Shown: positions 10,398 to 56,660, counted from the stretch's first letter. The stretch is 64,000 bases of DNA from Klebsiella pneumoniae (GCA_943330855.2 CALQJI020000013.1:7237-71236); one strand, 5' to 3'. The notes: a model not told the origin generated them from the letters alone. Made by a program: numbers and translations.

Positions 10398-11676
10398 GAT
10401 GGGCCCGCTTCAATCTCGACGGGGGCGGGATGGGCTGCTTGCCTTGCGGCCCGTGAGCAAGGCCACCATTGACGTAGCTTTCCTGCACCGCGCGCTGCAA
10501 TTAGCGCGGCGGGGCGTCGGACGCACGTCGCCGAACCCGAGAGTCGGGGCGGTGCTGGTGCGCAGCGGCAAAGTCATCGGCGAGGGGTGGCACCGGCGCG
10601 CGGGTCTGCCGCACGCGGAAATCGAGGCGCTGCGGGACGCGGCGCGGCGCGGCGAACGGGTGCGCGGGGCGACGCTGTTCGTGACGTTGGAGCCGTGCTG
10701 CACGCACGGACGCACGCCGCCTTGCACGGACGCGATCCTGGCAGCGGGTATCCGGCGCGTGGTCGTGGCAGCGACGGATCCGAATCCTGAGCACGCGGGG
10801 AAGGGCTTGGAGATTCTGCGGAAGGCGGGAGTGACTGTCGTAGGCAATGGGGAATGGGGAATGGGGAATGGGGAAACGGAGGAAGTTCGAGCAAGGCGGA
10901 GCGGGGAGGATTCGCAATTCGCAATTCGCAATTCGCAATTCAAAGCGAGGCTCCTTACCTCGGCGGCTACGCGGCTCAACGAGGCTTTCAACCATTGGAT
11001 CGTCCGGCGCACGCCGTTTGTGAGGGTGAAGGCGGCGATGACGCTGGATGGGAAGATTGCCACGGCGGCTGGCGAGTCGAAGTGGATTACCGGCGAGCGT
11101 TCGAGAGGGATAGCGATGCGGCTGCGGTTCGATTCGGACGCGGTGCTTGTCGGCATCAACACGGTGCTCGCGGACGATCCGAGCCTGACGGCACGCGCGC
11201 CAAGTGGGCGTGTGCGCAAACCGCTGCGGCGCTTCGTCCTCGATGCCTTCGCCCGCACGCCGCTCGACTCGGTGGTGGTGAGCGACGCGTTCGCAGCGCT
11301 GACGACGGTGGTGGTGAGCCGGGCGGCTCCGGCGCAGCAGGTGGCAGCGCTGGCGAAACGCGCGGGCGTGCTGGTGGCTCCGGCACGCGGGGGGCGGATC
11401 GACTTGCGATGGTTGCTCAAGCGGTTGGGTGGCGAAGGGGTGACGAGCTTGTTGGTGGAAGGTGGGGGCGAGGTGAACGCGGCTTTCTTGGAGGCAGGAC
11501 TGGCGCAGCGGGTGGAGTTCTTCTACGCGCCGAAGATTTTGGGTGGGCGCGAAGCGCGGCGGGGAGTTGCGGGAGAGGGTGGGAGGCGGTTGGCGGATTT
11601 GATCGAACTGCGGGAGGTCGAGTGGCGGCGGGTGGGGGAGGATTTGTGGCTGTCGGCGAGGGTGGGCAAAGAATAG
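10398..11676 (+). CDS. ribD: bifunctional riboflavin biosynthesis deaminase/reductase
   Basis: Deaminase motifs HAEIEAL and EPCCTHGRTPPC; reductase part VKAAMTLDGKIATAAGESKWITG. The start at MGPLQ (10398) is uncertain. Confidence 0.9.
10843..10972. repeat. composite repeat insertion inside ribD (in frame)
   Basis: (AATGGGG)x4 at 10846-10873, (ATTCGCA)x4 at 10910-10937, then a family C arm CTCCTTACCTCGGCGGCTAC at 10951-10970. Translated in frame as GNGEWGMGNGETEEVRARRSGEDSQFAIRNSQFKARLLTSAAT. Confidence 0.8.
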
Positions 11677-23073: not shown

Positions 23074-26000
23074 CTACACCACCGGCGGCCGCGCGGGAAT
23101 GCCTTCCCACTTGGTGCCGGCTGGCAGGGTCTCGCCCTTCATCAGGAGCGAGAGACTGTTGAGGTTTGAATCCGGCTCCATCCGTGTGTCGTAGAGCACG
23201 AGCGAGAGGCCGCCGATGGTGCAGCGGTCGCCCACGTCCACGGTGGACATCTTCATCACGCGGTCCTCGAAGAGATGCGTCTGGAGGGTGGCGTCAGCGT
23301 TCACGCACACATCGTCACCGAGGCGGACGAGGTCATGCTCGGTGATGTCCGTGGTCTCCAGATATACGCGCCTGCCGATGCGTGCGCCCATCGCCCGGAA
23401 TACCCAGCAGATGAAGGGTGTGCCTTGCAGGATGCTAACGAGCCAGGCGTTGCTCAGATGCTCGTGGACGGCGTTCACCAGTTCGTTGCGCCAGACGAAC
23501 GTGCTCCAGAGCGGGCGCTCGCCGGGCTGGTAGCGGCCCATGAGGCTCCACTTCAGCGCGATGAGGAAGCCCACCGCGCAGAGGCCGCACGCGCCGTAGA
23601 GCAGCGGGAAGGTCGCGACTTGTTCCCACGGCTCCAGATAGTCCTGCAGCAGCACCACGCCGGAGAAGAGCAGGCTGGTCAGCACGACGAAGCCGCTCGC
23701 GGGCAGCAGCACGCGGATGAATTCGATGAGCGCCCGTTGCGTGCGGAGCTTCGTCGTGGGCTTGAACGTGCTCTCGGCGGAGAAGGCGGTGCTCTGCTGG
23801 CGGCTGGGCAGAAAGATCGCGGGCGAACCCAGCCAAGTTGCTCCGTGCAGAGCGGCGTCCTCGGGTTTCGTCGGCGGGAGCGAAAGGCAGCCGACCAGCG
23901 CGTTGTCCGCGACGCCGCTGCCGGGTGGGAGCATCGCGCTGTTGCCAACGAAGGCGCGCTTGCCCACGCGACAGTGATCGAGCGTGATGAAGCCGCCTTC
24001 CACGCGCGCCGCGCCGAGCGTGACGCTGTCGGCGAGGAAGCTTTCGTCGCCGATGTCGAGCAGGTCGGGCGAGACCGCGCCAGCGGTGGAGATTTCCGCC
24101 TGCTTGCCGAGCTTGGCTCCGAGCAGCTTGAACCACGGCTCCAAATAGACCGACGCGTAGAGCGGTCCGAGGAAGTCGAGGCTCAAGTCCATGAGATGGT
24201 CCACGAACCATTTGCGGACGTAAAAGAGGCTGTAAATGGGATAGCGGCCCGGCTTCACACGCCCGAGCAGCAGCCACTTGAACGCGGCGATCTCCAGCCC
24301 GAGCAGCACGACGTAGCTGAAGGCAACGAGCGGCGCGAGGGTGAGGTAGCTGTAGTAGTCGTCCTCGTAGTTGAGGTGGTTCATCAGCACCACCCCGGGC
24401 AGAATCGCAGCGAGGATGCACGCCGGGAACAGCGCGACACCGACCGCGTGCAGGCAGGCGAAGCCGAAGCGGCGGAGCGGCGAGCATTGCTCGGCCTTTG
24501 GAAATTCATGCTCACCTGCCCAGCGGCGCTCGGCGCTCCGCTTCGCTGGCGAACCGAACCAGCGTTCACCAGCGGGAACCGTTTGGCCTGCTGGCAGCAG
24601 CGACATATCCTCGAGCGCGGCACCGTCCTCAAGCGACGAGTTCTCCCGCATCACTGCGCGCGTGCCGATGAAGCAGCCTTTGCCAATGCGGATATTGCCG
24701 ACGATGAGCTTGCCGCTCTCGACGTGATAGCCCGCCGCCGTGGCGTCCGTGCCCACGCTGGTGTCGTCGCCAATATCGAGCAGGTCGTAGCAGGCGAAGT
24801 TGGGGCTGGTGAGGTGGACGTTGCGTCCGATGCGCGCCCCCATGAGGCGGAAGTAAATGTTCAGCAGTGGCGTGCCGGCGAGGTAATGCACCGGGATGGC
24901 CGACTGGATGGTGTTCACAAACCAGAAGCGCACGTAGTAGCCGCCCCACAGTGGATACTCGCCCGCGCGGTAGCGCCCGATGACGAGCCACTTGAGGGCA
25001 ATGGACGCCGCAAGCATCGCCGGGTAGAGCGCCACGAGTATTCCGAACGCGCCGAGGATGGCCTCCCAGCGCTCGAACTCCTCCTCGAACATCCATGTGT
25101 AAGTGAGGTAGGGCGCAAGCCATTGCAGCGAGAAAAAGCCGAGCACGAAGTAAAGACCACCGAGCTGCCAGAGGCCGCAGAGGAAGTGGCGGAGACGGCT
25201 CAGAGCCCGGACGCCCACGTCCGCAGCCTCTTGGGCAGGCGCCTCTGGAACCGAGGTTTGCTCCTGCGGACGTGGGCGTCCGCGCTCCAAGCGGGCTGCG
25301 AGCTTCTCCACCGTCGGCTGCTCATAGACATCAAGCATCGAAACCCCGCGCAGTTCCGGGTCCTGGCGCAGCTCGCTCACCAGCCGCGCGGCGAGCAACG
25401 AGTGACCGCCCAGCTCGCGGAAGAAATCATCCGTCACCGACACGCGTTGCGGGGCGAAGAGCTCTTCCCACACGGCCACCAGCTTGCGCTCCATCGCCGT
25501 GCGCGGCGCGATATGATTTGGGTCCACGGCCAGGTGCGCGCGCGGTTGCGGCGCGGGCAAGGCCCGGCGGTCCACCTTACCGCTGGGCAGCGTGGGCAGC
25601 GACGCGATGGCTTCAATGAGCGCAGGCACCATGTAGCTGGGCAGGCGCTCGCGGAGCGTTTCCTTCAGCGCTTGCTCCGGGACGCCTTCACCTTCGCGCG
25701 GCACGACGTAGGCAACGAGCTGCTGCACGCCGAGAACGTCCTCTCGCACCGCCACCACGGCGGCGGCCACGCCCGGGCAGGCGAGCAAGACGGATTCAAT
25801 CTCCGACAGCTCGACGCGGTAGCCGCGCAGCTTCACCTGCGAGTCAATGCGACCCCGGAACTCGATCTCTCCCGCTTCGTTGAAGCACGCGAGGTCGCCG
25901 GTGCGGTAAAGGCGCGGCGGCTCCGCACCCAGCGGGTTGGCGATGAACTTCTCCGCCGTCAGGTCGGGCCGGCCCACGTAGCCACGCGCCAGCCCGATGC

Positions 26001-27087
26001 CGCCGATGCAGAGCTCGCCTTCCTGGCCGGCGGCAACCGAGCGCTGCTGCTCATCGAGGATCGCGACGGCATAGTTCGGCACGGGCCGCCCGATGGTCAC
26101 GGGCTGCCCCGGCGTGAGGTCGCCGTAAGTCGCGATGACCGTCGCCTCGGTCGGCCCGTAGGTGTTCACCATGCGCCGACCCGCGTGCGCCCAACGCGGG
26201 ACGAGGTCGGCAGGACAGGCTTCGCCACCGACGATGAGCAAGGTCACGCCCGGCACGTCCTCGGTCATCATCGCAAGTTGCGTTGGCACCGTGCTGAAGA
26301 CCGTGACGCCCGCCGCGGTGAGCAGCCGCGAAAGTGTCGGGCCGGATTGCACCATCTCGCGCGTCCCGACCACGAGTGTCGCGCCCGCAAAGAACGCGAG
26401 CCACACCTCCTCGACCGACGCATCGAACGCGATGGAGAAGCCCTGATACACGCGGTCGGCAGACCGCACGCCAAAGATGGCTCCCTCCGCCCGCACGAGA
26501 TGGCACGCGCTGCGATGCTCAATTTGAACGCCCTTGGGCCGCCCCGTCGTGCCGGAGGTGTAGATGACGTAGGCAACGTCCTGTGGGGTCTTCCCGGTGT
26601 CGCGACGAGTGAGCGTCGTCGTGGGCTCGCCGGCAATCGCCTTCAAGTCGTGGTCGAGGATAACGATTCTGCCAGCGAAGTTCCCGGCCTGCGCCCGCTG
26701 CGCCGACACGGTGACGAGCACGTCCGCCTTCACGTCAGCGAGGATGTATTCGACGCGGTCGGCCGGGTAGTCGGGGTCGAGCGGGACGTAGGCTGCCCCG
26801 GCCTTGAGCGCGGCGAGCAAGGCCACATACACATCCATCGAGCGCGGCAACAACAGCGCGACGTGGCTGCCGGAAGTCACGCCGAGTGAGCGCAAGTGCC
26901 GCGCGAGTTGGTTCGCGCGCTGCTCGAGTTCGCCGTAAGTCATCCGCTCGTCGCCACACGCGAGCGCGATCTGCCCTTCCGCCGCCGCCGCGCTGCGCTC
27001 GAAAATTTCGTGCAGCAGCTCATTGCGGCAAAGCTCAGATGCCTTCGTGAATTGGAAGGTCAAACCCTTGATTGGCGCGTGCGGCAT
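23074..27087 (-). CDS. Pls/PosA-family single-module non-ribosomal peptide synthetase (A-T-TM/tandem C-terminal domains)
   Basis: A-domain cores YVIYTSGTTGRPKG, FDASVEE, NTYGPTE, GELCIGGIGLARGY, YRTGD, GRIDSQVKLRGYRVE and PSGKVDR. Carrier motif FFRELGGHSLLAARL. Then hydrophobic helix pairs alternate with three hexapeptide-like domains. No C or TE domain. Start chosen at MPHAPIKGL (27087). Confidence 0.9.
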   Translation of the reverse strand: MPHAPIKGLTFQFTKASELCRNELLHEIFERSAAAAEGQIALACGDERMTYGELEQRANQLARHLRSLGVTSGSHVALLLPRSMDVYVALLAALKAGAAYVPLDPDYPADRVEYILADVKADVLVTVSAQRAQAGNFAGRIVILDHDLKAIAGEPTTTLTRRDTGKTPQDVAYVIYTSGTTGRPKGVQIEHRSACHLVRAEGAIFGVRSADRVYQGFSIAFDASVEEVWLAFFAGATLVVGTREMVQSGPTLSRLLTAAGVTVFSTVPTQLAMMTEDVPGVTLLIVGGEACPADLVPRWAHAGRRMVNTYGPTEATVIATYGDLTPGQPVTIGRPVPNYAVAILDEQQRSVAAGQEGELCIGGIGLARGYVGRPDLTAEKFIANPLGAEPPRLYRTGDLACFNEAGEIEFRGRIDSQVKLRGYRVELSEIESVLLACPGVAAAVVAVREDVLGVQQLVAYVVPREGEGVPEQALKETLRERLPSYMVPALIEAIASLPTLPSGKVDRRALPAPQPRAHLAVDPNHIAPRTAMERKLVAVWEELFAPQRVSVTDDFFRELGGHSLLAARLVSELRQDPELRGVSMLDVYEQPTVEKLAARLERGRPRPQEQTSVPEAPAQEAADVGVRALSRLRHFLCGLWQLGGLYFVLGFFSLQWLAPYLTYTWMFEEEFERWEAILGAFGILVALYPAMLAASIALKWLVIGRYRAGEYPLWGGYYVRFWFVNTIQSAIPVHYLAGTPLLNIYFRLMGARIGRNVHLTSPNFACYDLLDIGDDTSVGTDATAAGYHVESGKLIVGNIRIGKGCFIGTRAVMRENSSLEDGAALEDMSLLPAGQTVPAGERWFGSPAKRSAERRWAGEHEFPKAEQCSPLRRFGFACLHAVGVALFPACILAAILPGVVLMNHLNYEDDYYSYLTLAPLVAFSYVVLLGLEIAAFKWLLLGRVKPGRYPIYSLFYVRKWFVDHLMDLSLDFLGPLYASVYLEPWFKLLGAKLGKQAEISTAGAVSPDLLDIGDESFLADSVTLGAARVEGGFITLDHCRVGKRAFVGNSAMLPPGSGVADNALVGCLSLPPTKPEDAALHGATWLGSPAIFLPSRQQSTAFSAESTFKPTTKLRTQRALIEFIRVLLPASGFVVLTSLLFSGVVLLQDYLEPWEQVATFPLLYGACGLCAVGFLIALKWSLMGRYQPGERPLWSTFVWRNELVNAVHEHLSNAWLVSILQGTPFICWVFRAMGARIGRRVYLETTDITEHDLVRLGDDVCVNADATLQTHLFEDRVMKMSTVDVGDRCTIGGLSLVLYDTRMEPDSNLNSLSLLMKGETLPAGTKWEGIPARPPVV
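25208..25282. repeat. family G palindromic element inside the Pls-like CDS
   Basis: CGGACGCCCACGTCCGCAG (25208-25226) and CTGCGGACGTGGGCGTCCG (25264-25282) are perfect reverse complements. They encode ..RGRPRPQEQTSVPEAPAQEAADVGVRA.. between the carrier domain and the first TM helix. Confidence 0.85.
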
Positions 27088-27404
27088 AGGTAATTGGCTG
27101 CGAAAGCTTCCCCGCAGGAGACGCGCCTCGTCGCGGCTAGGTTTCGAGTGCGGACGTTGCTCCCTGCAATGCCCTCGACCGCCGCGAAGTGGTTTGGTTT
27201 CGTCCGCCCATGAAGCTCCGATTCTCCGCCGCTGGCTTTGCCGCGCTCTGTGCAGCCGCCTGCGCGCTCCACCAAGCTCGGCCTCGGCGCGGCGCTCGCA
27301 TGACACGCAGCCTCCGCACCGACCGCTGGTGCTACCGAGAGCTGGTTGAAGCCGGTGCCGAGAAAAAGCTGATTCGCACTACCGCGCTCCGCGTCGAAGC
27401 GCTC

Positions 27405-28096: not shown

Positions 28097-29011
28097 ATGA
28101 CAGCTCTCGCCACCTCGTTCCGCACGCCGCGGGTCCCGACCGTGGATCAGATCATGGCCGAGGAACGCGCCGGCAGCTTCGCCAAGCGCAGCCTCAAGAC
28201 CAGCGCCAAGCTCGCCGGCCTCAAGCTCGCCGTCAGCATGATGGACCTCACCACGCTGGAGGGCAAAGACACGCCCGGCAAAGTCGCCTTCCTCTGCCGC
28301 AAGGCCCTCGCCCCCGCCGAGCCGCGCTTCAACGTCCCGCCCTGCGCCGCCGTCTGCGTGTATCCGAACATGGTCCGGCACGCGCGCCAGTTCCTCGGCG
28401 CGGACTCGCCCGTGAAGGTCGCCTCCGTCGCCACCGGTTTTCCCAGCGGGCAATACCCCTTGCCCACGAAGCTCGGCGAGGTGCGGCGGGCGGTGGCGGA
28501 TGGGGCCGACGAAATTGACATGGTCATTGACCGCTGCGCCTTCCTCACGGGCGACCACGCCAAGGTCCACGATGAAATCGCCGCGACCAAGGCCGCCTGC
28601 GGTCCCGCGCACCTGAAAGTCATCTTCGAGACCGGCGAACTCGTCACCTACGACAACGTCCGGCTCGCCAGCCAGCTCGCGATGGAGGCGGGCGCGGACT
28701 TCATCAAGACCAGCACCGGCAAGGTCGCGCCCGCCGCCACCATGCCCGTCACGCTCGTGATGCTGGAGGCCATCCGCGACCACTTCTTCGCCACGGGCGT
28801 GCGCATCGGGATGAAGCCCGCCGGGGGCATCCGCACCAGCAAGCAAGCGCTGGCCTACCTCGTGATGGTGAAGGAAACCCTCGGCGACGACTGGCTCACG
28901 CCCGACCTCTTCCGCTTCGGGGCCAGCACGCTCGTGAACGACGTGGTCATGCAAATCGCGAAGCTGGCGGAAGGGCGCTATCAGGGGCCGGACTACTTCT
29001 CACAGCCGTGA
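28097..29011 (+). CDS. deoC: deoxyribose-phosphate aldolase
   Basis: Long-form DeoC: MMDLTTLEG, VCVYP, VATGFPSG, ADEIDMVI, and the Schiff-base lysine in FIKTSTGK. Confidence 0.9.
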   Translation: MTALATSFRTPRVPTVDQIMAEERAGSFAKRSLKTSAKLAGLKLAVSMMDLTTLEGKDTPGKVAFLCRKALAPAEPRFNVPPCAAVCVYPNMVRHARQFLGADSPVKVASVATGFPSGQYPLPTKLGEVRRAVADGADEIDMVIDRCAFLTGDHAKVHDEIAATKAACGPAHLKVIFETGELVTYDNVRLASQLAMEAGADFIKTSTGKVAPAATMPVTLVMLEAIRDHFFATGVRIGMKPAGGIRTSKQALAYLVMVKETLGDDWLTPDLFRFGASTLVNDVVMQIAKLAEGRYQGPDYFSQP

Positions 29012-29040: not shown

Positions 29041-29135
29041 GCCTAAAGACCCAGAGCTACAACGACCCGGCCCACGAGGGCGCTGGATTGCAACCGCGAC
29101 GCGATGGCCGGGTTAGATGCAGCGCATGGTTAGGC
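29041..29135 (-). other. attC-like imperfect palindrome downstream of the cassette ORF
   Basis: On the minus strand: GCCTAAC (29135-29129, fits RYYYAAC) ... ACCCGGCC / GGCCGGGT inner pairing ... TTTAGGC (29047-29041, GTTRRRY with the first base mismatched). ~95 nt, beginning 9 nt after the stop codon. Confidence 0.45.
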
Positions 29136-29143
29136 ATTTTCTC

Positions 29144-29656
29144 TCACTTCCTGTTTTTTGTTTCGAGCAACTTCTTCTTCTCTAATTGAAACTCTTCTTC
29201 AGTCAGGACGCCACGTTCCTTGAGATCAGCGAGTTTTTTTAGCTCGGCGTATACATCAACTTGCTTCTCAATACGAACGGTAGTGTCTCCGGATGTTGGT
29301 CTGCCTTCAGCGTCATACGCCCGTTGAGTGGATACTGCGACAGTCGGGTCACTCGCGACACCTTCTGTTCCGGGCCGCACAAGGCGAAATTTCAGATCTA
29401 CCTGCGGCCACTTGGCAAAACCGGCTGCGGTCTCATTCACGGACACAACTTCCGCAACCATGCCTTTGCTCAACGCAAATTCGTTGGCTTCCTTGTATGC
29501 TTGCTTTCGTAGACTGCCGACAGGCGTCAAACCAGTCGTGCCGGTCTTAGTAACCGTGTAGACCCCACCGGCGGCGGCCATGACTGGGGATGTGGTCGAA
29601 CATCCACTCTGCAACACGAGAGCGATGAGCACGATAACTGTGAGTATGGATTTCAT
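29144..29656 (-). CDS. SHOCT-domain lipoprotein (candidate integron cassette)
   Basis: Lipobox LVLQSGC after MKSILTVIVLIALV. C-terminal SHOCT-like YAELKKLADLKERGVLTEEEFQLEKKKLLE. The DNA is visibly more AT-rich than its neighbours. Confidence 0.75.
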   Translation of the reverse strand: MKSILTVIVLIALVLQSGCSTTSPVMAAAGGVYTVTKTGTTGLTPVGSLRKQAYKEANEFALSKGMVAEVVSVNETAAGFAKWPQVDLKFRLVRPGTEGVASDPTVAVSTQRAYDAEGRPTSGDTTVRIEKQVDVYAELKKLADLKERGVLTEEEFQLEKKKLLETKNRK

Positions 29657-29744
29657 AGGTGCAATTCGAGCCTAACTGGTGAGTATGCGACTGGAAGATT
29701 TTTGGGGTCGCATATTGCTGGACGGTTGCGGAGGGGGGTAGAAG
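29657..29744. promoter_or_regulatory. attI-like / divergent promoter region between the cassette and the intI remnant
   Basis: GTTAGGC core (minus strand, 29676-29670) lies 13 nt upstream of the cassette ATG. The 88-nt spacer separates the divergent cassette ORF and the intI remnant. Confidence 0.35.
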
Positions 29745-30085
29745 GTGTCAATGAAAGTTTCCGAGGCGCTTGAAAAGCTGACGGATGCGGTGCGCGTGCG
29801 GCATTTTGCGCTGGCGACCGAGAAGTCGTATCGGCTCTGGCTCCGGTCGTATATGGCGGTGGTGGGAGAATACCCGGCGGATGGGGGGCCGGAGAAAAAG
29901 ATCGAAAGGTTTTTGACCGATGAAGCGCGGCGCGGGCGGCGGCGGGCAAGGTGACGCCGCACGCGCACGAGGGAGGCGCGCCGGTGCGGAACCTCCAGGA
30001 GGCGATGGCGCACACGCAGATTGAGACGACGATGCGCTATCTGGCGCCGACGGCAGCGGGGGTGCGCAGTCCGCTGGATGGGTGA
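29745..30085 (+). pseudogene. intI: internally deleted integron-type tyrosine recombinase (delta-intI)
   Basis: Frame A: ..LTDAVRVRHFALATEKSYRLWLRSYMAVVGEYPADGGPEKKIERFLTDEA.. (N-terminal SAM-like domain), stopping at 29954. Frame B from 29951: VTPHA.EGGAPVRNLQEAMAHTQIETTMRYLAPTAAGVRSPLDG* (extreme C-terminus including the catalytic-Tyr region). The central ~200 aa are missing. Confidence 0.75.
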
Positions 30086-30138
30086 GGGGGGGTGGGGAAT
30101 GGGGAATAGGGAATGGGGAGGGTAGAATGCACTGCGTC

Positions 30139-30360
30139 GTATTACGAGGTTGCTGCGTTGTATTGCGAGGTCGTTGCGTTGTATTGCGAGGTCGTTGCCG
30201 GGTGTTCTGAGGTCGCTGCCGGGTGTTCCGAGGTCGCTGCCGGGTGTTCTGAAGTCGCTGCCGGGTGTTCTGAAGTCGCTGCCGGGTGTTCTGAAGTCGT
30301 TGCCGGGTGTTCTGAAGTCGTTGCCGGGTGTTCTGAAGTCGTTGCCGGGTGTTCCAGTGT
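30139..30360. repeat. 21-bp tandem repeat array (~10.5 units)
   Basis: Three units GTATTGCGAGGTCGTTGCGTT-like grade into seven-plus units GTGTTCTGAAGTCGCTGCCGG-like, head to tail with no spacers. Confidence 0.9.
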
Positions 30361-30512
30361 AGCTGCTTTACTCAAGCAATCAGTCTTGAAGGCTGATTTG
30401 TGCCTTAATCATACAAGGCAGAGGGTCTCGAATATGCGGCAGCCATTCCAGAGGTTCTGGCAACTGTGTTGTTATGGCGTTTTTTCTCCATCACCCCCAG
30501 CCCGCTGGGAGC

Positions 30513-30716
30513 GGGGGCACGCGCGCCGCACTCCCGTAGTCGCAACCTTTAGGTTGCGCGTCCGGCCTGCCCTCCCTGACGCGCAGGCTGAAGCCTGCGA
30601 CTACGGGGACGCGCGGGGGCACGCGCGCCGCACTCCCGTAGTCGCAACCTTTAGGTTGCGCGTCCGGCCTGCCTTCCCTGCCGCGCAGGCTGAAGCCTGC
30701 GACTACGGGGACGTGC
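30513..30716. repeat. two tandem 102-bp units, each a family E palindromic element
   Basis: GGGGGCACGCGCGCCGCACTCCCGTAGTCGCAACCTTTAGGTTGCGCGTCCGGCCTGCC.TCCCTG.CGCGCAGGCTGAAGCCTGCGACTACGGGGACG.GC is repeated at 30513 and 30615. It has terminal IR CCGTAGTCGC/GCGACTACGG and two internal hairpins. A related copy lies at 56531. Confidence 0.85.
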
Positions 30717-30941
30717 GGGGGCTTGGCGGCAGCGTGTTCACCAATCCCCCTTTGCCCGGCAAGCAAGCAACTGAGACGCGCGCTTTTACACCAAAGGGGT
30801 TGACTTGGAATGGAAATGCGCCCTTGCTCGACCGATGCACCTGCTCCGGGGAACTTCCCCTATTTGGCTGCCCTTTCGGGTCGCCGGGTTCTCCCTGCAC
30901 CCTTGCGGGTGTCCCAGCAGCCGCGCCGGAAGGAATCCCTC

Positions 30942-31863
30942 ATGAACGACCTCAATGAATCCGCCTACACGCGTGGCCTGGCCACGTTCGCCGCGCAGAC
31001 GCAGATCGGCTCGCCGCTGGTGCTCGAGGAGATGACGCTGCCGGTGTGGGAGGCGCGGCTCGCGGCCATCGTCACGCAGAAGGAGGTGGCGCAGGACCGG
31101 GAGTCGGATTTGAACGGCAAGCGCGGGGAGCTGGATGTCCAGCTCGGGCTGCTCGTCACGCTGGGGAAGCAGATGTTCGCGCTGGCCAAGGGCAAGTGGC
31201 GCAATGACGCGGCCAAGCTCGCGCATTTCCGCAACATCCGCTTCGAGAGCAATGGCCGTCCCGCGCTGCTCACGGATGTCTGCGCGGTGGAATCGGGCTG
31301 GGAAGGGGCGGACGCGGCGTGGGTGCCCATCACCGAGCCGGGCCCGCCGCCGGTGCCCATCACGCTGGCGCTCTTCAAGACGCGGCGGCTGGCGGTGGAG
31401 ACGTTGCTCAAGCAGGAGCGGCTGGCGGAGGGGTCATGGTCGTCGCAGGAGAAGGTGCTCAACGCGTTGTGCGGCGTGCTCAATGCGGACAATGTGGCGT
31501 GGTATGCGGCGGCGGTGATCCTCTTTCCCGAGGGCACGGCGCATGGGGACATGATCCGCGCGACCATCCCGACGACTTACTCGCCGCCGGCCGCGCCGCC
31601 GGGGGGGGGCGACGTTCACCCATGCGGAATCGCCCGCGCCGGGCGAGCTGACGGCGGGGCTGGCCGCGCCGGGTGCGGCGACGTTTGACTTCTATCGCAA
31701 GGGGCCGGGGGACGCGGCCTTTGTGAAGGTGGTGGACCTCTCGACGAATGACGAATACAGCGCGACGGGGCTGGCCGCGGGGACGTATCTGCTCAAGGGG
31801 CAGGGGCATAACAGTGGTGGTTATGGGCCGTTGAGTGCGGAGCAGTCGGTGGTGGTGGGGTGA
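30942..31863 (+). pseudogene. hypothetical protein with C-terminal Fn3-like segment, split by a frameshift at a G9 tract
   Basis: The frame from MNDLNESAY (30942) runs to the G9 run at 31601-31609. One frame over, the sequence continues ATFTHAESPAPGELTAGLAAPGAATFDFYRKGPGDAAFVKVVDLSTNDEYSATGLAAGTYLLKGQGHNSGGYGPLSAEQSVVVG*, stopping at 31861-31863. Eight Gs would restore a single ORF. Confidence 0.55.
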
Positions 31864-31959
31864 AGGGAAGTTGAAGGTTGAAGGTTGAAAGGGGGGCGGG
31901 CGGGTGCTTGCTCACTTTCCCACCTGCTCACCTGCTCACCTGCCCTTGCCTTTGAAGCT

Positions 31960-32616
31960 ATGTCACGGGAATCCACCTCAGCCAAAGCCGCGCGCACGAC
32001 GGCGGTCATCGTCGCGTTGCAGCGCACTTACCCGGATGCGTATTGCGAGCTGAACCACGCGAACCCGGTGGAGTTGCTGGTCGCGACCATCCTCTCGGCG
32101 CAGTGCACGGACAAGCGGGTGAACTTGGTCACGGCGGAGTTGTTCCGGCGCTATCGCAGCGCGCGGGAGTTCGCGGAGGCACCGCTGGCGGAGTTGGAGC
32201 TGGCGGTGAAGAGCACGGGGTTTTACCGGAACAAGGCGAAGAACATCCAGGCGTGCTGTCGCAAGCTCGTCGAGCGCCACGGCGGCGAAGTGCCGCGCAC
32301 GATGGAGGAACTCACGGCGCTCGCCGGCGCGGGGCGTAAGACGGCGAACGTGGTGCTCGGGAACGCCTTCGGCATCAACGTGGGCGTGGTCGTGGACACG
32401 CACGTGTCGCGGCTCTCGCAGCGGCTCGGGCTAACGCGGGAGACGACGCCGGAACGCATCGAGACGGACTTGATGAAGCTGGTGCCGCAGCCGCAATGGG
32501 CGCAGTTCAGCCACTGGCTCATCTGGCACGGGCGGCGGCGGTGCGATGCGCGCAAGCCGGCTTGTGCGGGGTGCGAACTGAAGGCGTTGTGTCCGCAGGT
32601 CGGGGTGAAACGCTAG
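31960..32616 (+). CDS. nth: endonuclease III
   Basis: HhH-GPD region LTALAGAGRKTANVVL, catalytic region VDTHV, and the [4Fe-4S] cluster loop CDARKPACAGCELKALC. Confidence 0.93.
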   Translation: MSRESTSAKAARTTAVIVALQRTYPDAYCELNHANPVELLVATILSAQCTDKRVNLVTAELFRRYRSAREFAEAPLAELELAVKSTGFYRNKAKNIQACCRKLVERHGGEVPRTMEELTALAGAGRKTANVVLGNAFGINVGVVVDTHVSRLSQRLGLTRETTPERIETDLMKLVPQPQWAQFSHWLIWHGRRRCDARKPACAGCELKALCPQVGVKR

Positions 32617-40083: not shown

Positions 40084-40210
40084 TTCTCCCTCTCCCTTCA
40101 TCGGATGAGGGGAGCGGGCCGGGGGGAAGAGTTGCGGGCGTCGGCGTTGGCGGCCCCACCCCTCATCCGGCCTGCGGCCTCCTTCTCCCCTCCTCCGAGG
40201 AAGGGAGAAG
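40084..40210. repeat. family F GC-rich hairpin repeats ('SPSP..GEG' type)
   Basis: TTCTCCCTCTCCCTTCATCGGATGAGGGGAGCGGG and CCACCCCTCATCCGG..CTTCTCCCCTCCTCCGAGGAAGGGAGAAGG. A related hairpin CTCCCTCTCCCAGCGGGAGAGGG lies at ~57994-58036. Confidence 0.6.
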
Positions 40211-40286
40211 GCGCGCGCCGTTGCGTCCAGTTGGCAGCCCACCCAATTGCATCGGGAACTGCTCTTACTCTTCATCACGCTCCGCT

Positions 40287-56538: not shown

Positions 56539-56660
56539 TCGCAGGCTTCAGCCTGCGCTTCGGTCCGTCGCGGCGGTCTGTGCCCGCCATTTGCGCAACT
56601 CGGCGCTCACAGAGCGCCGCTACAGGTTCTGATTCGCAACCTGAAGGTTGCGACTACGGG
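56531..56660. repeat. family E palindromic element
   Basis: CCCCGTAGTCGCAGGCTTCAGCCTGCG ... TTCGCAACCTGAAGGTTGCGACTACGGG. The left arm contains the TAG stop of the EamA gene. Confidence 0.85.

Follow-up and report, generated by a model that had tools for sequence, protein, structure and literature searches.

A probable degenerate chromosomal integron with a broken integrase gene, an attI site and a single lipoprotein cassette in a lineage of uncultured Verrucomicrobiota

Integrons are devices with which bacteria capture genes. Sedentary chromosomal integrons, of which the Vibrio cholerae superintegron with its integrase VchIntIA and its Vibrio cholerae repeats (VCR) is an example, combine an integrase gene (intI), an insertion site (attI) from which that gene diverges, and promoterless cassettes of a single open reading frame (ORF), each ending in an attC site that is an imperfect palindrome with RYYYAAC and GTTRRRY cores. 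The same arrangement was found at positions 29041-30085 of a stretch of 64,000 nt deposited as Klebsiella pneumoniae (GCA_943330855.2 CALQJI020000013.1:7237-71236); the whole 64-kb stretch is called the window here, and positions are counted from its first letter. In the window, a gene for a lipoprotein with a SHOCT domain lies between an attI and an attC site, beside the remains of intI. As in sedentary chromosomal integrons, relatives of the locus (L039, with 20 sites, and L006) have long arrays with homogeneous attC sites; unlike those systems, the window has one cassette left and a dead integrase. In contrast to the Vibrio integron, the host is an uncultured lineage of Verrucomicrobiota, with metagenome-assembled genomes (MAGs) of Pedosphaera, Chthoniobacter and Terrimicrobiaceae as nearest named relatives, and the attC sites of the window family, unlike VCR, are ~95 to 170 nt long with conserved arms of their own. 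We conclude, with a probability of roughly nine in ten, that the locus is a degenerate chromosomal integron of which there remain an integrase gene that is dead, an attI site that is intact and one cassette.

Loss of the integrase with retention of cassettes has precedents. Cury et al. (2016; PMC4889954) reported integrons in Verrucomicrobia and found intI pseudogenes near 15 of 279 groups of attC sites without an integron integrase (CALIN), and in both features, integrase lost and cassettes left, the window locus is alike. It is nevertheless not a CALIN, which needs two or more attC sites with no intI nearby, as the window has one attC site and an adjoining intI pseudogene. The pseudogene criterion of that survey was >50% profile coverage (PMC4889954), and the window locus, with an intI stub of ~35%, would probably be missed by the published criteria. 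A second parallel is provided by class 1 cleavage-site mutants (Frumerie et al. 2010; PMC2811028), of which the G1-to-T change in the window attC, with no compensating change on the facing arm, is a natural counterpart; those data were obtained for IntI1 with attI1 and attCaadA7/VCR. Integrons in Verrucomicrobia and intI pseudogenes were thus already known, and the window adds a well-documented further example and no new mechanism. Its interest is as a clean natural case of integron death and of a cassette becoming a fixed chromosomal gene, in which a 93 to 97% identical intact orthologue lets each deletion be mapped to the base and several decay states of one locus co-exist in metagenomes. 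One-cassette remnants with an intI stub of ~35% probably fall under the published detection criteria, in which case surveys would miss part of the past activity of integrons in phyla that, like Verrucomicrobiota, have been little studied.

The integrase gene is represented by two plus-strand ORFs in different frames, 29745-29954 and 29951-30085, which encode the two ends, N- and C-terminal, of a tyrosine recombinase (Pfam Phage_int_SAM_4, 7e-5; Phage_integrase, 1.1e-4). An initial annotation of the window had read them in this way and had considered the gene dead, and both points are borne out by the closest intact orthologue, P0049 (317 aa), which is found on loci L126 and L127. L126 DNA is 93% identical to the window over 29670-29946 and 97% over 29955-30083 (blastn), and at the codon level three deletions turn the P0049 gene into that of the window. 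The N-terminal part (29751-29938, plus strand) corresponds to approximately codons 1-62 and is 95% identical in amino acids to residues 1-62 of P0049; its ORF is lengthened by a GTG further upstream, at 29745, and the frame is open to a stop at 29952-29954. The first deletion (574 nt, L126 589-1162 missing) causes a frameshift and is flanked by GC-rich GGC/GCG repeats, inside which its plus-strand junction (29936-29946) lies. The C-terminal part (29939-30085, plus strand; AAGKVTPH/AHEGG...RSPLDG and stop; 97% nucleotide identity to L126 1226-1354) lacks a further 18 nt (GLLGKV), in frame and flanked by an AAGGTG direct repeat, and 27 nt (VLRHCYATH), flanked by a CGCAC direct repeat and including the box II arginine. 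The large central loss had been noticed earlier, whereas these two smaller deletions had been missed. The length check is exact: 954 nt minus 619 nt (574 + 18 + 27) leaves the 335 nt of 29751-30085, such that the remnant covers ~35% of intI and about two thirds of the gene length are lost.

These deletions leave the catalytic set R-K-H-R-H-Y incomplete. The 574-nt deletion took away the box I arginine and the lysine, the loss of VLRHCYATH took away the box II arginine, and only the region of the C-terminal histidine and the tyrosine survives. The segment specific to IntI (VchIntIA ~190-245, between patch II and box II) likewise falls inside the 574-nt deletion; it is present in P0049 and is aligned in L005, a second intact integrase (VRLPGLLARKSPGLALTAAWAWVFPAH..HPRTGELVRWRMHE). 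On its sequence, the window intI is a dead pseudogene that has lost its catalytic core as well as the box II arginine and the segment specific to IntI.

Assignment to the integron integrases had also been proposed, and several lines of evidence favor it. First, the joined fragments match TIGR02249 (integron integrase) best in NCBIfam (1.3e-10; next, XerA at 6.7e-4), over model positions 2-57 and 271-313. Second, their sole PDB match is VchIntIA (2a3v, the Vibrio cholerae integron integrase), to residues 272-317 of which the C-terminal part corresponds. Third, orthologues align over their full length. A scan of a genome collection gave intact relatives in Verrucomicrobial MAGs, namely L005 (Chthoniobacter, 321 aa), L006 (Terrimicrobiaceae, 316 aa) and L007, and scores against TIGR02249 (cutoff, 265 bits) were 268.2 for L005, 263 for L006 and 256.5 for P0049, compared with ~105 to 133 for Xer models. 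L005 aligns with VchIntIA over residues 5-318, including the IntI-specific segment (E = 1.4e-45, versus 1.7e-22 for the best Xer protein), and a search with L005 found thousands of full-length integron integrases, many of them labelled 'integron integrase' at source. An impression that the whole clade had decayed, gained from a word-based search that gave fragments only, was dropped in view of this result. The predicted family of the window recombinase is that of the integron integrases, not the Xer or phage type. Intact intI genes with cassette arrays, for which a comparison of relatives had been suggested, were found in L006 (6 attC sites) and L039 (20 attC sites), but in genomic contexts other than the deoC-nth interval.

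The attI crossover core, GTTAGGC (29670-29676, minus strand), lies 13 nt before the lipoprotein ATG and is the limit of the DNA common to seven loci: the window (with L033-L038 of the same species), L002-L004, L124, L125, L126/L127, L005 and L006. In these seven, the DNA from the intI start to GTT(A/C)GGC is conserved (the core being GTTCGGC in L006) and is followed by seven unrelated first cassettes, for example the lipoprotein cassette in the window and L033-L038 and two small secreted proteins in L002-L004. Homology of L002-L004, L005 and L126/L127 to the window (blastn) starts exactly at 29670, the last base of the heptamer, and the rest of attI with the intI leader (29677-29750) is conserved in relatives by alignment and blastn. 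A conserved flank that ends at G/TT and is joined to interchangeable cassettes is the defining mark of an integron insertion site, and to judge from this pattern the attI here is intact. The integron geometry suggested by the initial annotation (divergent intI, attI, and cassette plus attC) is supported by this boundary in seven loci and by the attC match described below; the lipoprotein ATG and the recombinase ORF are divergent and separated by an 88-nt gap. The attI/intI leader also contains a perfect 7-nt inverted repeat, ATGCGAC-N15-GTCGCAT (29685-29713), largely kept in L002, L005, L006 and L126, which is a candidate integrase-binding or regulatory site.

At the other end of the cassette is a 95-nt attC site (29041-29135), the cassette-sense top strand of which is the minus strand of the window and the recombinogenic bottom strand the plus strand. 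Its R'' box, GCCTAAC (RYYYAAC; 29129-29135, minus strand), begins 8 nt after the lipoprotein stop, with an AAC that is invariant in 15/15 attC sites of the family, and its R' box, TTTAGGC (29041-29047, minus strand), is GTTRRRY with the crossover G changed to T. The site contains the imperfect palindrome arms ACCCGGCC/GGCCGGGT, and its first 18 nt at the 5' end (GCCTAACCATGCGCTGCA) recur unchanged in attC sites of the L006 array. The three core sites and the palindrome had all been recognized before, at the same positions, and the one mismatch of TTTAGGC proves to fall on the crossover G. TTAGGC has only four occurrences in 64 kb, three of them within the 636-nt stretch from the attI core to R', a clustering beyond chance. 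In L006, attI is followed by six cassettes, each ending in the repeat GCC(T/G)AACCATGCGCTGCAGCGAAC...GTCGCTGAGCTTGGGGTCGTT(A/C)GGC. A related repeat of 103 nt is present 20 times in L039, where it lies between small same-strand ORFs next to an integrase gene.

A covariance model (R1) was built from 15 attC sites of L006, L039 and L002 aligned as bottom strands, with the window left out of the training set, and was applied unfiltered to all 64 kb of the window. This search, the kind of check that had been recommended, gave one significant match, which occupies 29041-29135 of the plus strand, spans model positions 1-103 of 103 and scores 37.4 bits with an E value of 1.6e-7; the runner-up has 13.8 bits and an E value of 0.22. 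Elsewhere, R1 found all 20 L039 sites, 7 L006 sites, and arrays in the untrained, unrelated contigs L050 and L083. A scan of the window at Rfam gathering thresholds returned only a tRNA and no attC family. In the consensus fold, AAC/GTT is invariant in the R box, the spacer is left unpaired, and the L stem, which has 13 bp and shows compensatory changes, leaves two bases unpaired on the bottom-strand 3' arm; the window site has its two on the same arm. Canonical attC sites carry their extrahelical bases on that same 3' arm of the bottom strand.

The R' change places T at the crossover position of the top strand (TTTAGGC for GTTAGGC), and on the bottom strand A29047 opposes G29129, unpaired. 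The T is common to all same-species contigs, among them the independent contigs L033, L034, L035 and L038. In class 1 integrons, recombination drops 10^3- to 10^4-fold when the G of GTT is mutated in only one partner, and ~370-fold when the cleavage site is non-complementary (PMC2811028). By analogy, the G-to-T change probably freezes the cassette in place.

The cassette ORF (29144-29656, minus strand) encodes 170 aa, among them a signal peptide that ends in ...LQSGC, and matches Pfam SHOCT at residues 137-164 (E = 5.6e-7); the product is a probable lipoprotein whose SHOCT domain is C-terminal. The ORF has a GC content of 52%, versus ~67% for the flanks, and the earlier description of an AT-richer, divergent SHOCT lipoprotein gene stands in every part. 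Comparison of the gene with three homologues gave ratios of nonsynonymous to synonymous substitution rates (dN/dS) of 0.05 to 0.08, with dS saturated, indicating that the cassette gene is functional and under strong purifying selection. The cassette unit (29047-29675, minus strand; 629 nt) is bounded by the TT of the GTT on the attI side and by the crossover position in its own attC; homology to loci with other cassettes stops at 29670, and the boundaries match those of a cassette in L039. There, a homologue with 86% amino acid and 76% nucleotide identity is an internal cassette of the 20-attC array, 631 nt long as against 629 nt, with 10 nt between its G/TTAGGC start and the ATG (versus 13 nt in the window) and an L039-type attC whose R'' lies ~10 nt after the stop. 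The lipoprotein cassette, as its boundaries indicate, is a mobile unit that recurs in another array. An identical lipoprotein sequence with the same attI, attC and deoC flank occurs on >20 short metagenome contigs, and in the same-species contigs L033-L038 the cassette, attC and deoC flank are identical to those of the window. The predicted lipoprotein structure has a predicted local distance difference test score of 70.6 and a well-predicted alpha/beta core (residues 30-95), and a PDB search with it gave no significant match (best E value, 0.03; template modelling score, <0.26).

We propose the following sequence of events. An integron platform (intI plus attI) of Verrucomicrobial type would once have sat at the locus and, while intact, its own integrase would have put a circular cassette (TTAGGC, lipoprotein ORF and attC) into the G/TT of attI. 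As the sequences show, intI was later destroyed by the three short-repeat-flanked deletions, and the attC of the cassette gained the G-to-T change at its crossover base. The cassette would now be immobile because the local integrase is dead and because of the class 1 data on the G of GTT: it could no longer be excised by its own integrase and, on that analogy, would be a poor substrate for one from elsewhere. It would thus behave as a fixed chromosomal gene for a secreted SHOCT lipoprotein, kept by purifying selection.

Several observations weigh against this reading. P0049 and L006 are slightly under the TIGR02249 cutoff. Three of the 20 modelled pairs of the window attC are non-canonical, two of them in the L stem and the third at the crossover position. 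The predicted bottom-strand fold is a bulged hairpin closed by the R box (-23.4 kcal/mol) and keeping 17/20 model pairs, but the single-strand fold is not significant alone (z = -1.7 and -1.3). The 574-nt junction is absent from every other contig examined. A sigma-70-type promoter scan found none for the cassette and none for intI. Among copies of the lipoprotein gene, those of the window and L039 have a recognisable attC of the window family, and the two more distant homologues in L040 and L041 (78 to 82% identical) do not; a lipoprotein gene without core sites in relatives had been named beforehand as a finding that would speak against an integron, and it was encountered only in these two. 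The lipoprotein gene family is thus not confined to integrons. With regard to the promoter, in class 1 integrons Pc is located in the intI 5' end. By analogy, the retained intI 5' end in the window may persist by carrying the cassette promoter.

A related allele in other contigs deserves separate description. A 63- to 65-aa in-frame IntI stub (MKVSEALEKLTDAVRLRH joined to CYATHAHEGG...SPLDG), in which the first ~18 to 20 IntI residues are fused to the last 45, has one junction common to at least five metagenome contigs (L002-L004, L124 and L125) and a Lake Baikal Pedosphaera MAG (L008). These five contigs keep the stub reading frame uninterrupted, and the L008 copy has a 1-nt frameshift. Pairwise dN/dS for the allele is ~0.1 to 0.17, and all 5 differences among L002-L004 are synonymous. 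The allele is linked to three different first cassettes (in L002-L004, L124 and L125), and its junction is possibly in a 10-nt direct repeat. Either the peptide may be kept by selection, or cassette exchange may go on at attI beside dead integrases with an integrase acting in trans. There is a slim chance that dead-integrase platforms of this family are not inert; if so, the window allele would be one state in a population polymorphism of decay, together with alleles in which intI is interrupted by a repetitive extragenic palindromic (REP)-like element or is absent. Given the possible 10-nt direct repeat, recurrent deletion is a sufficient explanation.

The stub allele bears on an alternative in which only the local intI is dead and the module is still active in trans, with a second, intact integrase elsewhere in the genome excising or replacing the cassette. 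Three different first cassettes beside one stub would allow for exchange after the death of intI, the attI core of the window is intact, and half of the integrase-less attC clusters of Cury et al. are in genomes with IntI elsewhere (PMC4889954). The stub deletion may, however, recur via its possible repeat and need not predate cassette exchange. Moreover, the sole attC of the window has a mispaired T for G at the crossover, which in class 1 integrons costs 10^2- to 10^4-fold in recombination; the same cassette is present in all same-species contigs; and there is no second intI or attC within the 64-kb window. We therefore regard continued activity in trans as unlikely.

A second alternative concerns the large intI deletion, which could be an assembly artefact, i.e., a collapse over GC-rich repeats among co-existing strains, in which case the real intI would be longer. 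No other contig backs the junction at 29946, which lies in GGC/GCG repeats, and four contigs diverge there: L033, L034, L037 and L038 match the window to 29946 and continue with ~60 nt of intact-like sequence and then a REP-like element. Short contigs of the locus in many assemblies also suggest strain heterogeneity. The 18- and 27-nt deletions, on the other hand, each with 5- to 6-nt repeats, are not errors of an assembler type, and they remove a catalytic arginine; they lie in contiguous sequence, and intI is dead whatever the status of the 574-nt junction. In addition, the other alleles are broken too: L033, L034 and L037 have the N-terminal 84 to 86 intI codons followed by a stop and the REP-like element (in L034, the stop is after codon 86), and in L036 intI is absent, with a 169-aa ORF in its place. 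The 574-nt junction is either strain specific or, less likely, an assembly join, and an artefactual origin of the whole central loss appears rather improbable. The REP-like element is also present in the window, as a GC-rich intergenic sequence at 40131-40243 with an internal hairpin (CTTCTCCCCTCCTCCGAGGAAGGGAGAAGG), 83 to 89% identical copies of which break intI after codon ~86 (L033 189-301, L034 29-142 and L037 15-120).

That the locus is instead the remnant of a phage, an integrative and conjugative element or a Xer-type tyrosine recombinase with its att sites, the integron-like cores being coincidental, is most improbable: the fragments taken alone are below every family cutoff and conservation of the C-terminal 45 aa extends to tyrosine recombinases at large, but IntI models score highest, intact orthologues have the segment specific to IntI, and the repeats of the family that includes the flanking site make up cassette arrays beside such integrases.

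The degenerate integron lies between deoC (28097-29011, plus strand; Pfam DeoC, 2.7e-24), which ends 29 nt before the attC palindrome, and nth (31885-32616; HhH-GPD, 1.2e-27). Both flanking genes had been named correctly, but nth does not adjoin the integron, as the intI stub is separated from it by ~1.8 kb that contain one ORF and two kinds of repeat, a tandem one of 21 nt and a hairpin-forming one of 102 nt. At 80 metagenome deoC loci (65 to 87% amino acid identity), no IntI, Nth, lipoprotein or GC-rich ORF was found nearby, nor any empty site, and L005, L006, L007 and L008 are all in different neighbourhoods. As the neighbourhoods differ and no integrase lies near the 80 deoC loci, the position beside deoC is lineage specific. 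The sequence common to the window and the P0049 locus runs from attI on one side to the intI stop codon on the other, which suggests that the intI-attI unit sits in differing genomic contexts, via mobility or rearrangement. Platform homology ends exactly at the intI stop (L126 1357 onward, L002/L008, and window 30086 onward), with at least three unrelated right flanks.

Directly downstream of the intI stub is a 21-nt tandem repeat (30132-30354, ~10 to 11 copies), which is preceded by a G-rich GGGGAAT run, comprises two sub-families grading together (CTGCGTTGTATTGCGAGGTCG and GTCGCTGCCGGGTGTTCTGAA), and was not found in the intI flanks of relatives. It is followed at 30511-30722 by a 102-nt unit that is present in tandem as two copies with 97% identity (and in part at 56633-56660, minus strand) and that forms a long, near-perfect hairpin (-31.9 kcal/mol, z = -5.9) and is REP-like or similar to a miniature inverted-repeat transposable element, and is not an attC. 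The 102-nt hairpin and the 21-nt repeats were considered as attC sites of an integron in inverted orientation and rejected, there being no R1 match, no RYYYAAC/GTTRRRY ends and no ORFs between them. Between the repeats and nth lies a GC-rich ORF of ~250 to 290 aa (30942-31688, within 30810-31688) with no Pfam or NCBIfam match, and after it, in another frame, a 46-aa ORF (31723-31863), which may reflect a frameshift. On the other side of deoC, 23074-27306 (minus strand) encodes a 1410-aa protein resembling nonribosomal peptide synthetases, with adenylation and carrier-protein domains and C-terminal membrane and hexapeptide-repeat regions; the same gene is present in contig L043, annotated AMP-binding, PP-binding and Hexapep.

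Three other contigs bear on deoC surroundings. Arrays of attC sites of the window family, found by R1, lie within a few kb of deoC on two unrelated metagenome contigs: the 5 sites of L083 (12843-15534) lie downstream of deoC and of a gene for aldehyde dehydrogenase, the 7 sites of L050 (319-3325) lie at a contig end, and no integrase was detected in either. In L045, a second copy of the last 34 deoC codons (11031-11132, 76% identity) is located 3.6 kb downstream of the full deoC, after a 1121-aa ORF, and looks like an insertion footprint at the deoC 3' end.

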